From: Akkermansia sp.
Lineage (GTDB): Bacteria > Verrucomicrobiota > Verrucomicrobiia > Verrucomicrobiales > Akkermansiaceae
Direction of reading: 5' to 3'
Assembly: GCF_020860705.1 (NCBI RefSeq)
Contig: NZ_JAJBTT010000044.1
Span: 9,204 to 73,203, forward strand
DNA length: 64,000 nucleotides
Under the pieces are notes generated by a model. It saw nothing but the letters and a program-made list of their open reading frames with translations, searched no databases and had not been told where the DNA came from. A program made the translations under genes and the position numbers. Within the stretch, counting starts at the first letter, position 1. Every line of letters starts with the position of its first letter. Positions 1-56,657 of the stretch are shown here, piece by piece.

Positions 1-191
1 TTTCCGTATCCCCTAATAGGAACAATTTTTTCATTGGAGGGTTGACACATTTAGACTCTTCAATCATAATCCCGATGTCTAGAGAGTGTTCCTCTCTTTC
101 TTATGTACTCACTTAATTGTTACAGTTCAATTATCCTTTATAGGTGTTTGAATTAGATAATAGTTATTTGTGGTACTTATAGATGAACGAT

Positions 192-256: not shown

Positions 257-293
257 CTGCCCAGCTGAATTAGTGTCAGCTGGGCAGTTCTTT
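257..293 (+). terminator. Rho-independent terminator-like hairpin downstream of the solitary repeat
   Basis: Perfect 12-bp stem ctgcccagctga / tcagctgggcag (257-268 / 276-287), 7-nt loop, then ttctttat. Confidence 0.6.
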
Positions 294-52085: not shown

Positions 52086-52232
52086 TTCCCTGCCGGGGTT
52101 TTTGCACGGGGCCCGCTTTCCGGGCCTTCCTCCTGCCAGGATACGCCCTGTATTCGATGAAAAGGCTTCACATTGCGCGCGGAATGCGCTAGAACCTTTT
52201 CTCCTATTGAACAAATAAAATATTATTTGCAC

Positions 52233-54086
52233 ATGAGCACAAACGACAAAACATCATCCGCCCCGACGAAAACCCGCATGACAGGAGCCGAAGTGCTCGT
52301 GGAATGCCTCGTGCGTGAAGGTGTAGACGTCGTCTTTGCCTATCCCGGCGGCGCCAGTATGCCGATTCACCAGGCCCTGAGCCATCAGCCCAAAATCCGG
52401 ACCATCCTGCCCCGCCATGAACAGGGCGGCGCGTTCGGCGCGGAAGGCTACGGCCGTGTCACGGGCAAGGTGGGCGTCTGTATCTCCACTTCCGGCCCCG
52501 GCGCCACCAACATGATCACCTCCATTGCGGACGCCTATCTGGACTCCACCCCGCTGGTGGCGATTACGGCGCAGGTCATGCGTTCCCTGATCGGCCGCGG
52601 CGCATTCCAGGAAACGGACGTGTTCGGCATGACCGCCCCCATCGTGAAGCACAGCTATCTGGTGACGGAACCGGAAGAACTGCCCCGCATCATCAAGGAA
52701 GCCTTTTACATCGCCTCCACCGGCCGTCCCGGTCCGGTGGTGATTGACATGCCCAAGGACGTGCAGGAAGCCGTGTTCACCCCGGACTTCGAGATGGAAA
52801 TGGATCTCCCCGGCTACAATCCGGTGCTGCCCGTTCCCACGGAAAAGCTGGAAGAACTTATTCCGCTGATTGAAAACGCCAGCCGTCCCGTCATTTACGC
52901 AGGTGGCGGCATCATCTCTGCGGAAGCCTCCGCGGACCTGCTGGAATTTGCGGAACGCTCCCAGATTCCCGTGGCGACCACCCTGATGGGCATTGGCGCC
53001 ATGCCGGAAACCCACCCCCTCTCCCTGCGCTGGCTGGGCATGCACGGAGCCGTGTTTGCCAACAACGCCGTGAATGAGGCTGATCTGGTGATCGCCCTGG
53101 GCGCCCGGTTTGACGACCGCGTGACTGGAGCCGTCAACATGTTCTGCCCGGACGCCACCATCGTCCACATTGACATTGACGCCAGTGAAATCAACAAAAA
53201 TAAAAAGGTGGCGCATCCCATCCGCGCGAACGTGAAAGACGCTCTGAAGGTTCTTAACGCCGCCCTGGCCGCGAAAGGCTGGGACCGCAAATCCTCCGGC
53301 TTCACCCGCACTCCGGAATGGTTTGGCGTGATTGAAGGCTGGAAGGCGCAGTATCCCTTCTCCTATGAAGACCGCAAGGGGTACATCTCCCCGCAGGCCG
53401 TCATTGAGGAACTCTACCGCCAGACGGCGGACAAGGACCCCATCATTTGCACGGGCGTGGGCCAGCACCAGATGTTCGCCGCCCAATTCTTCAAATTTGA
53501 CAAGCCCAGGCGTTTGGCTACCTCCGGTGGGCTGGGAACCATGGGCTACGGCCTTCCCGCCGCCATGGGCGTATGCCTGGCCTGTCCGGACAAGCTGGTG
53601 GTGAACATTGACGGGGACGGCTCCATGCTCATGAACATTCAGGAGCTGGCTACCATTCACGTGGAGCGCCTGCCCGTCAAATGCATTATTCTGAACAACC
53701 AGCACCTGGGCATGGTGGTGCAGTGGGAAGACCTGAAATATGACTCCAACCGGGCCCAGACCTTCCTGGCGGACCCGCACGACCACTATGATCCAACCCA
53801 TAAGACGGAAGACGTTATTTACCCGAACTACCCGCTCATCTGCGCCGGATTCGGCGTCAAATGTGAGCGTGTGCTCCGCATAGAAGAACTCCCGGAGGCG
53901 ATCACCCGCATGATTGAATCCCCGGAAGCGTACGTGCTGGACGTGATGGTTCCCCATGACGTGCACGTGCTGCCGATCATTCTGGGCGGCATGAGCTACA
54001 AGGACGTGATTCTGGAACGTATTGCCGGGGACGGCTCCGCCAAAAAGGCGTCCGAACTGGGCAAGGAAATCCCGACGGCCCTGTAA
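52233..54086 (+). CDS. ilvB: Acetolactate synthase, large (catalytic) subunit
   Basis: MTGAEVLVECLVREGVDVVFAYPGGA..., GPGATN, TPP motif GGLGTMGYGLPAAMG...DGDGSMLMNIQEL...NNQHLGMV. Confidence 0.92.
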   Translation: MSTNDKTSSAPTKTRMTGAEVLVECLVREGVDVVFAYPGGASMPIHQALSHQPKIRTILPRHEQGGAFGAEGYGRVTGKVGVCISTSGPGATNMITSIADAYLDSTPLVAITAQVMRSLIGRGAFQETDVFGMTAPIVKHSYLVTEPEELPRIIKEAFYIASTGRPGPVVIDMPKDVQEAVFTPDFEMEMDLPGYNPVLPVPTEKLEELIPLIENASRPVIYAGGGIISAEASADLLEFAERSQIPVATTLMGIGAMPETHPLSLRWLGMHGAVFANNAVNEADLVIALGARFDDRVTGAVNMFCPDATIVHIDIDASEINKNKKVAHPIRANVKDALKVLNAALAAKGWDRKSSGFTRTPEWFGVIEGWKAQYPFSYEDRKGYISPQAVIEELYRQTADKDPIICTGVGQHQMFAAQFFKFDKPRRLATSGGLGTMGYGLPAAMGVCLACPDKLVVNIDGDGSMLMNIQELATIHVERLPVKCIILNNQHLGMVVQWEDLKYDSNRAQTFLADPHDHYDPTHKTEDVIYPNYPLICAGFGVKCERVLRIEELPEAITRMIESPEAYVLDVMVPHDVHVLPIILGGMSYKDVILERIAGDGSAKKASELGKEIPTAL

Positions 54087-54120: not shown

Positions 54121-54148
54121 GGAGCCGTCCGTAAGGGCGGCTCCTTTT
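54121..54148 (+). terminator. Rho-independent terminator after ilvB
   Basis: ggagccgtcc / gggcggctcc 10-bp stem (one G:U), loop gtaa, then TTTT. Confidence 0.7.
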
Positions 54149-54579
54149 GCATGGGAGAGGGAGAACGGGCCCGGGACGGTTTGCATCAATAAGGGAATGT
54201 CTATCCTCCCGAAAGGGCGTCTTTTCACAGGCCCCGGTTTTACCGGAGTCATATGGGGCGGCATCATTTGGGGAACGGTGAAGATGTTGCTGGACGCAAC
54301 GGGGAGGAACGGCTAGCATCAATGAATAAGTTGGGTGCAAGCCGGACGGAACACGGGAAAGAGGAGGATGCCCTGGAAAGTTGCTGTGTCTGATGCCGCC
54401 TTGCGCCAACCCCAGGCTCACAGGAAATTCCCGGGAGATCGGCGCTTCTTGTAAGCTATTGGGAAACGCATATTGACAAAAAATTACCCATGATTGGGCC
54501 TGACAGTATCCGGCTTTTGAAACAGGTTGGCGCAAAACCCTTGTTACACGCTTGATACTCAATCCGTATGCTTCAGGCC

Positions 54580-55781
54580 GTCGCATCCTCACGGATGCGT
54601 GGATTGAAACAATCCTTTTGCCAGGTTTTCCAAGTCAGGATAGAGTCGCATCCTCACGGATGCGTGGATTGAAACGCCTCAATCTTCAGGGTGGCTTTAG
54701 GCTTAATTTGTCGCATCCTCACGGATGCGTGGATTGAAACCACAGTCATCAAACGGAAGCGCGTTGGCTGTGAGGTCGCATCCTCACGGATGCGTGGATT
54801 GAAACCAGCGCAGGCTCAAGGTAGGTCGTGGCAAATGCTGTCGCATCCTCACGGATGCGTGGATTGAAACCTTAAAGAAAAGGTGGGCGCCCGTGAAGAG
54901 ATTGGTCGCATCCTCACGGATGCGTGGATTGAAACATCTAAAAAAACAGTTGATGGATGGCTGTCTGCTGTCGCATCCTCACGGATGCGTGGATTGAAAC
55001 AATCATATCCAGTCCTGCGCGGTTTTCCGGCGCGGTCGCATCCTCACGGATGCGTGGATTGAAACAACGGCCTTTAATACGGCTTGGGAGTGTTTAATTG
55101 TCGCATCCTCACGGATGCGTGGATTGAAACGACGATGAAGTTATAGGTGAATTTGTAGTGCGCTGTCGCATCCTCACGGATGCGTGGATTGAAACCGGGA
55201 AAACCCGAACGCACTGCCCGGCACCACGGGTCGCATCCTCACGGATGCGTGGATTGAAACGCAAACTGGCTCGTGGAAGTCCCCAGCATGCTCTGTCGCA
55301 TCCTCACGGATGCGTGGATTGAAACCCATAATCAAAAGCGTGTAATGGTATGGTCAAACCGTCGCATCCTCACGGATGCGTGGATTGAAACAAGGCATCC
55401 ATCACCAGCACGGCCAGGGCGCTCAGTCGCATCCTCACGGATGCGTGGATTGAAACTGTACCACGACATGCGCGCCTACATGGATGCACAGTCGCATCCT
55501 CACGGATGCGTGGATTGAAACAACCTTGATGCCGACCCGGAGCCAGACCCTCAGGTCGCATCCTCACGGATGCGTGGATTGAAACGCTCCAACACAAGAT
55601 GGACCAATGTATTATTGCAAGTCGCATCCTCACGGATGCGTGGATTGAAACGGCGAAATTGTACTGGGCGCTGTCCACTCCATCCGTCGCATCCTCACGG
55701 ATGCGTGGATTGAAACCAACGGGGTTGCAACGGGGGTTCCCAGCTCTTGCGTCGCATCCTCACGGATGCGTAGGATGGATG
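54580..55781 (+). CRISPR. CRISPR array, type I-C-like repeat; 19 repeats, 18 spacers
   Basis: 31-nt repeat gtcgcatcctcacggatgcgtggattgaaac, 18 identical copies plus a 3'-degenerate terminal copy at 55751-55781 (..gcgtaggatggatg). Spacers are 33-35 nt and all different. The repeat has a 7-bp stem (cgcatcc/ggatgcg) and the GTGGATTGAAAC tail typical of I-C repeats. Orientation follows from the tail and the degenerate distal repeat. Confidence 0.97.
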
Positions 55782-55994
55782 ATTCAGTTGTCTTTTCTGG
55801 TTTGGGGATGGTGAGGGTTTTTCTGTTGATGAATCATGGTGTTAAATGTTTTTTAAGATGAGAGTTGAGTTGTTTACCGGGTAGTGTAGTCAAGAAAGGG
55901 AAGCTGTATACGGATGTTTCCTGTGGCATGGTGCATTTTTCCGTGTTCACAGTTGGTGTTGGAGGAGGTTGAGGTGATCCAATATAAAGATAAC

Positions 55995-56657
55995 ATGCAC
56001 ATAGACTGGTTGAATGATTTTTTGGAGTGGGCTCCTATTTTGCTGATGGTGCTGGTGGCGGTTATTTTTCTGGTGGCGTTGAAGTGGAAAAGCGAGAGGT
56101 TGAAAAAGTCTCTGGAGAAATGGAAGCGGCGAATAGCCCGGGAGGCGAAAGCCGGCCATCCCGAAGCCCAGTTCCGCCTGGGACGCATTTACCAGGAGGG
56201 GAACGACGTGAAGAAGGATCCTGACCGGGCGAAGGAGTGGTTCCATAAGGCACTACCCGGCTTGAAGCAGGAGGCGGAGGAAGGGAGCAGTGTTGCCGCC
56301 TTTTATCTGTACCAGTGTTTTCATGAAGGCCTGGGCGTGGAGAGGGAGGACACTCAAGCTCTGCATTGGCTGCAGTGTGCGGCGGAACTGGGCAGTCCTG
56401 AGGCCATGTTTGACCTGGCGCTGGAGTACCGGGAGGGAGGACTGGTGGAGAAGAACGGGGATTTGTTCATGCATTGGCTGCGGAAGGCGGCGGAAGAGGA
56501 TGAAAAGGATGCCCAGTATCTGCTGGCCGCCTCCTATGAACACGGCAACGGAGTTCCCCAGGATGCCAATCTGGCACGGGTATGGTATGACCGTGCAGCG
56601 GCAGGAGCACCTCCCTCCGTGGATGATGATGCACGGGGGCGCAGGAAAGGGAGATAG
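55995..56657 (+). CDS. Sel1-like (SLR/TPR) repeat protein with N-terminal TM anchor
   Basis: Repeated A-x-x-x-L-G-x-x-Y-x-x-G-x-G-V-x-x-D units (AQFRLGRIYQEGNDVKKDPDRAKEWF; AMFDLALEYREGGLVEKNGDLFMHWL; AQYLLAASYEHGNGVPQDANLARVWY). Confidence 0.8.
   Translation: MHIDWLNDFLEWAPILLMVLVAVIFLVALKWKSERLKKSLEKWKRRIAREAKAGHPEAQFRLGRIYQEGNDVKKDPDRAKEWFHKALPGLKQEAEEGSSVAAFYLYQCFHEGLGVEREDTQALHWLQCAAELGSPEAMFDLALEYREGGLVEKNGDLFMHWLRKAAEEDEKDAQYLLAASYEHGNGVPQDANLARVWYDRAAAGAPPSVDDDARGRRKGR

Follow-up and report, generated by a model that had tools for sequence, protein, structure and literature searches.

Remote CRISPR arrays that are used in trans are known from Escherichia coli K-12 (its second type I-E array) and from Haloferax volcanii (its multiple type I-B arrays). 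In both organisms one cas operon is combined with dispersed arrays that have a common repeat and a homologous leader. The array analyzed here (array A), from the genome of an Akkermansia gut bacterium, is part of the same kind of organization. It differs from these two cases in its subtype, I-C, in which Cas5c and not Cas6 is responsible for crRNA processing, and in being one of five arrays with four stem variants and a single cas locus. The archetypal type I-C arrays, those of Nitratidesulfovibrio (Desulfovibrio) vulgaris and other bacteria, have the repeat architecture and the repeat 3' end (GTGGATTGAAAC) of array A. However, the repeat of array A is 31 nt long, where 32 nt is usual, and array A is not adjacent to cas2.

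The type I-C system of Akkermansia has itself been described. The sections of Karcher et al. (2021, Genome Biol, PMC8278651) that deal with it give cas3-cas5-cas8c-cas7 and cas4-cas1-cas2 as two divergent groups flanked on either side by an array, a TTC PAM, and spacers whose only matches are to newly assembled gut phages, which are absent from reference phage collections; orphan arrays of the genus were already used in that analysis. The cas layout and the PAM are the same in the genome studied here, as is the targeting of Akkermansia phages that reference phage collections lack. The general situation of a remote I-C array in Akkermansia is already known, and array A has little value as a discovery because remote arrays used in trans are textbook material and orphan I-C arrays of Akkermansia have been published. 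The same sections of that paper do not describe the positions of the remote arrays, their common leader, or their conservation at fixed sites; here, the site between ilvB and a Sel1-repeat gene is found to be occupied in six species.

The stretch of DNA that was analyzed (the window, 64,000 nt) spans positions 9204-73203 of a 101-kb contig, C16, in a genome of 54 contigs and 3.07 Mb. Array A and its surroundings comprise the following features, all on the forward strand:

54121..54149, forward strand: intrinsic terminator of the upstream ilvB-like gene, marking the left edge of the array-bearing intergenic region
54401..54579, forward strand: CRISPR leader of array A, about 180 nt, delimited by alignment of five leaders and then of 25 across the genus
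54401..54411, forward strand: left arm (TTGCGCCAACC) of an 11-bp inverted repeat, where homology among paralogous leaders starts
54473..54478, forward strand: conserved TTGACA, candidate -35 box for pre-crRNA transcription (leader alignment)
54525..54535, forward strand: right arm (GGTTGGCGCAA) of the inverted repeat, 44 nt 5' of the first repeat (leader alignment)
54580..55716, forward strand: repeats of array A, in 18 identical copies of 31 nt, with spacers A01-A17
55717..55781, forward strand: spacer A18, the oldest (55717-55750), and the decayed terminal repeat (55751-55781), which set the polarity of the array
55914..56657, forward strand: Sel1-repeat gene 3' of array A, followed by psd (Pfam)

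The repeat, GTCGCATCCTCACGGATGCGTGGATTGAAAC, recurs with a period of 64-66 nt from the first copy (54580-54610) to the eighteenth (55686-55716). The first 21 nt of the terminal repeat are intact and the remainder is decayed. All 18 spacers are unique, and 15 of them are 34 nt long; of the other three, two measure 35 nt and one 33 nt. The sequence agrees in this with the first-pass annotation, which had counted 18 identical 31-nt repeats, a decayed terminal one and 18 unique spacers of 33-35 nt. The setting given there, an ilvB terminator about 430 nt upstream and a Sel1-repeat gene and psd downstream, was confirmed by a hairpin scan and by Pfam. The ilvB-like ORF (52173-54086) has three TPP-enzyme domains of the acetolactate-synthase type, its terminator hairpin (54121-54144) has a 10-bp stem with eight G-C pairs followed by a T-run, and psd encodes phosphatidylserine decarboxylase. 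The further hint that array A had taken the place of ilvN was rejected, an intact ilvN being present elsewhere in the genome (C22:40013-40477).

In the repeat, a hairpin with 7 bp in the stem and 4 nt in the loop (-11.2 kcal/mol) precedes the 11-nt handle TGGATTGAAAC. It has the short G+C-rich hairpin and the 11-nt handle ending in ATTGAAAC that are expected of I-C repeats. The class assignment of the first-pass annotation stands on this structure and on array-to-array alignment with I-C-type arrays, among them arrays on plasmids of N. vulgaris, Zymomonas, Treponema and Tistrella. The sole match of the repeat in an Rfam search was a sub-threshold one to CRISPR-DR9.

A scan of the genome for this repeat family recovered five arrays:

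Array A, window 54580-55781 on C16: 18 repeats and a decayed terminal repeat; remote from cas genes
Array B, C27:9342-10736: 22 repeats; remote
Array C, C40:78637-79321: 11 repeats; just beyond cas7
Array D, C40 at about 69.86-70.06 kb: three repeats and a decayed terminal repeat, of a 33-nt variant; directly after cas2
Array E, C24:65234-65687: at least six repeats (scaffold gap); remote

The five arrays use four repeat variants, which have the last 12 nt, the 3' end GTGGATTGAAAC and the 11-nt 3' handle in common. Differences between variants are confined to the stem, and the hairpin is kept in every one of them; relative to the majority variant, array A has a single compensatory pair change, C-G to U-A. 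Arrays A and B together hold 39 of the approximately 57 spacers of the genome. In array E, a run of Ns (C24, about 65400-65520) is flanked by a duplicated spacer, a scaffolding artefact that leaves the spacer count uncertain.

A single complete type I-C cas locus was found in the genome, on the 141-kb contig C40. The genes cas3 (HD and helicase), cas5c, cas8c and cas7 lie on one strand and diverge from cas4, cas1c and cas2 on the opposite strand. All seven proteins are full-length and score above the NCBIfam I-C cut-offs, and each has one tblastn match in the genome, every one on C40, with the only Cas1 at C40:70.6-71.6 kb. The same search found no cas gene in the window, as had been claimed for it, nor anywhere on contig C16. 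That array A belongs to a cas operon just outside the window, from which only the window cut separates it, has a negligible probability given this distribution, and the distance speaks against it as well: array A would lie at least about 98 kb from the cas locus even with C16 and C40 abutting, and about 245 kb separate the orthologous array (at 562 kb) from cas1 (at 808 kb) in G035, a complete genome. The first-pass annotation had allowed both for a cas operon just past the window and for an absence of cas genes from the whole genome; what we found is the complete cognate set, cas3-cas5c-cas8c-cas7-cas4-cas1-cas2, in the same genome but not adjacent to array A. Its description of the array as stranded is accurate in that array A is remote from any cas gene, but array A is not an oddity, being one of five dispersed arrays that share a leader. 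Since matching cas genes are present, array A does not qualify as a strict orphan, a term that demands their absence genome-wide; it is an orphan only positionally, in the sense used by array-finding software.

On the strength of sequence comparison, we consider array A to be probably (at a probability of about 0.8) a working remote I-C array that is used in trans, both for the supply of crRNAs and for the acquisition of spacers. The repeat, handle, leader, spacer length, PAM signature and target class all match the I-C system, and the array has been fully renewed at a fixed remote site, which together argue for use in trans.

Array A shares its I-C repeat family with the arrays on either side of the cas genes, and its leader is homologous to theirs. 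In the alignment, a homologous leader of about 180 nt precedes all five arrays, the cas2-adjacent array D included, and it is kept in 24 of 25 leaders compared across the genus (five from this genome and 20 from other Akkermansia genomes). TTGACA is conserved in most of the 25, and the leader also has a conserved CCCGGGAGATCGGCG block. The arms of the inverted repeat bracket TTGACA; they are fully complementary in 17 of the 25 leaders and spaced 113-115 nt apart in 24, with divergent sequence between them. In the divergent leader of G028, two positions have changed on both arms and complementarity is preserved. The inverted repeat is a candidate for a pair of protein-binding half-sites or for a structural element.

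A simple sigma-70 scan called no canonical promoter in the leader of array A and recognized no good -10 box. This would fit a relic, that is, an array that was once built by the I-C system, is now without transcription, processing or extension, and has merely not been deleted. We regard such a history as unlikely, given that the leader of array A is conserved at the level of the cas2-adjacent leader, all 18 of its repeats are identical, and the cas set on C40 is intact.

The comparison of species bears on the same alternative. The site between ilvB and the Sel1 gene is also occupied by an array in five other species-level genomes (G035, G007, G064, G066 and MAG11749); in Akkermansia sp. MAG11749 the leader motif is present, the region is syntenic with the window, and ilvB identity is 92.6%. 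The ilvB-Sel1 arrays of other species carry the majority repeat. All 18 repeats of array A and its terminal repeat are of a variant unique to this genome, and the presence of this private variant in every repeat indicates that the whole array was rebuilt from a mutated repeat since species divergence. Leaders cluster by chromosomal site across species, which implies that the array paralogues are older than the species; leader alignment and site comparison give three to four paralogous array lineages that predate speciation. Among 877 spacers compared, including those of the ilvB-Sel1 arrays of other species, none was common to different loci. Furthermore, on a contig from another sample, a leader with 97% identity to that of array A is followed by the first repeat and then by a different first spacer. 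Both the full turnover of spacers at a conserved site and the different first spacer of this near relative are at odds with a relic. In its favor, G007 has kept its arrays despite a truncated cas1, which shows that arrays of this family can outlive adaptation genes.

In G007 at least five arrays are kept, and Cas1 is matched only by a C-terminal fragment of 136 aa (G007:C1:3069049-3069438), so that the adaptation module has apparently decayed. A strain with the spacers of array A was not found in two sets of DNA contigs, which cover small shares of the region and returned only flanks and leader from relatives. The exact repeat variant of array A had no match in JGI metagenomes.

Protospacers were searched for in related Akkermansia genomes, five at a time, and matches were obtained for four of the 18 spacers of array A:

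A11: 34/34 in G066 and 32/34 in G035; PAM TTC in both; target in an element that encodes a CI-like S24 repressor
A18: 33/34 in G035 and 32/34 in G067; PAM TTG; target in the Mu-type portal gene of a prophage that also has terminase and major head genes
A07: 30/34 in G035; PAM TTC; the prophage also matched by A18; mismatches spaced by multiples of three
A14: 30/34 in G064; PAM TCC, with TTC one base upstream; mismatches spaced by multiples of three

The element matched by A11 also encodes a ParB-like domain, within a very long ORF (2,180 aa), and it is matched by B21, a spacer of the remote array B, with PAM TTT. The 5'-TTC PAM of type I-C is thus found exactly with A11 and A07; A18 and A14 have TTG and TCC in its place, which counts against use by the I-C system. 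TTC makes up only 1.4-2.2% of trinucleotides at the matched loci, and against this low background an exact TTC at two of four matched spacers is unlikely by chance.

Other searches with array A returned no protospacers. The whole array had no blastn match in a phage collection, and in a plasmid collection it matched other I-C arrays only. Pattern scans of IMG/VR with A01, A02, A03, A05, A08 and A09, allowing any base at every sixth position, gave no match for any of them. A genus-wide pattern search with A01 at up to three mismatches recovered only array A itself, and a genus-wide DNA search with the whole array gave array-to-array alignments only among the best two candidates per genome. The scarcity of known targets for most spacers would be in keeping with a relic. 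The spacer comparison proposed by the first-pass annotation gave protospacers in relatives for four spacers, three of which (A07, A11 and A18) match prophage or mobile-element DNA; it gave none in phage and plasmid collections, and self-targeting by array A was not seen.

Within the genome itself no spacer of array A had a significant match; a partial match of A13 (25/26) was judged incidental. This result bears on a possible non-immune role of array A, either by read-through into the Sel1 and psd genes or by guidance of Cascade to regulatory targets on the chromosome. No terminator was predicted in the stretch between array A and the Sel1 gene, as read-through would have it, and a solo repeat in the same genome is an apparent regulatory guide for Cascade (see below). 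We nevertheless hold a non-immune role to be very improbable, because, besides the absence of significant matches to its own genome, the spacers that do find matches target prophage and mobile-element genes of relatives with an interference PAM, and because the spacer content of array A is not conserved between species, unlike what would be expected of a regulatory guide.

Spacers of other Akkermansia species match the genome studied here perfectly in two regions, C37:5.9-18.6 kb and C23:72-75 kb. The first (C37:5867-18554) has three perfect matches to spacers from Akkermansia species G121 and is probably a prophage or other mobile element. The second is matched by spacers from two other species and also by spacer 3 of array C (35/36 at C23:72514-72548). 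This spacer has two extra 5' bases that shift its register: the canonical 34-nt protospacer has TTC, and in the register of the spacer the PAM is TAT and position 1 is mismatched. The shifted register may explain why the self-match of array C is tolerated.

Solitary repeat units are known to yield crRNA-like regulatory RNAs, as in CreA/CreTA (PMC8501985, PMC9458426) and in the type I-C crlRNAs (bioRxiv 10.1101/2024.12.27.630466). A solo repeat is located at positions 192-222 of the window, with hairpin and handle intact and followed by a pseudo-spacer, between two predicted elements:

window 42-70: conserved TTGACA-17-CATAAT promoter, candidate for transcription of the solo-repeat RNA
about window 257-287: terminator hairpin, predicted end of the solo-repeat RNA

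Upstream of the solo repeat by about 170 nt, on the opposite strand, is a TTC-flanked site that the pseudo-spacer matches; the PAM is at window 20-22, and the target extends beyond the first position of the window. The match comprises positions 1-5, 7-11, 13-17 and 19-20, and the mismatches at 6, 12 and 18 are at the bases that type I Cascade leaves unpaired. In the orthologous solo units of G125, G066 and G007 the pseudo-spacers differ and the targets have changed in step, at position 1 in G125, at positions 14-15 in G066, and at no fewer than seven positions in G007, which has TTT as its PAM; mismatches at positions 6 and 12 occur in each of the four species. Directly beside the target is the -35 box of a divergent promoter, and this promoter faces a DUF3892 gene (C16:8719-9090). 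The gene is intact in this genome and in G007 and broken in G066 and G125.

From this pairing and covariation, the solo repeat looks like a Cascade-guiding regulatory RNA, and such a guide on C16 would mean that remote sites in these genomes are within the reach of Cascade. As in CreA/CreTA and the I-C crlRNAs, an intact hairpin and handle are joined to a pseudo-spacer that pairs in part with a PAM-flanked site at a neighboring divergent promoter. In contrast to them, the unit is far from the cas genes, on another contig, and faces a DUF3892 gene instead of a cas-embedded toxin or defence system.

The private stem of array A (GCATCC...GGATGC) is also the stem of the solo-repeat orthologue in G066 and is one G:U pair away from that of the solo repeat in its own genome (GGATGT); orthologous ilvB-Sel1 arrays of other species have the stem GCACCC...GGGTGC. 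The likeness of array A and the solo repeat could be a coincidence or could reflect sequence exchange, the two loci being 54 kb apart in direct orientation.

Use of array A in trans, as the first-pass annotation had proposed, gains support from the intact cas set, the leader homology, the identity of the repeats and the TTC-flanked targets, and transcription, processing, interference and acquisition probably take place at array A at the present day. The leader would drive a pre-crRNA, which Cas5c encoded on C40 would cut at the 3' base of each repeat hairpin, leaving the 11-nt 5' handle common to the five arrays. Cas5c, Cas8c and Cas7 would then assemble on the crRNAs, and Cas3 would degrade TTC-flanked targets. 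Cas4-Cas1-Cas2 would recognize the conserved leader-repeat junction and add spacers to array A as they would at the cas-adjacent arrays.

For annotation, spacer-based linking of phages to hosts and strain typing in Akkermansia should take in the remote arrays, and the conserved leader motif makes it simple to locate these arrays and to determine their orientation. More interest attaches to the leader inverted repeat and to the solo-repeat guide that co-varies with its target, since they bear on how type I-C systems recognize arrays and regulate host genes. It is possible, if still doubtful, that the I-C system of Akkermansia is a network distributed over the whole genome, in which the leader inverted repeat with its 113-115-bp spacing lets the integration or transcription machinery recognize arrays anywhere, and in which Cascade is also recruited by the solo-repeat RNA to repress the DUF3892 gene. 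If true, this would explain how three to four array lineages older than the species could remain active at fixed sites among housekeeping genes.
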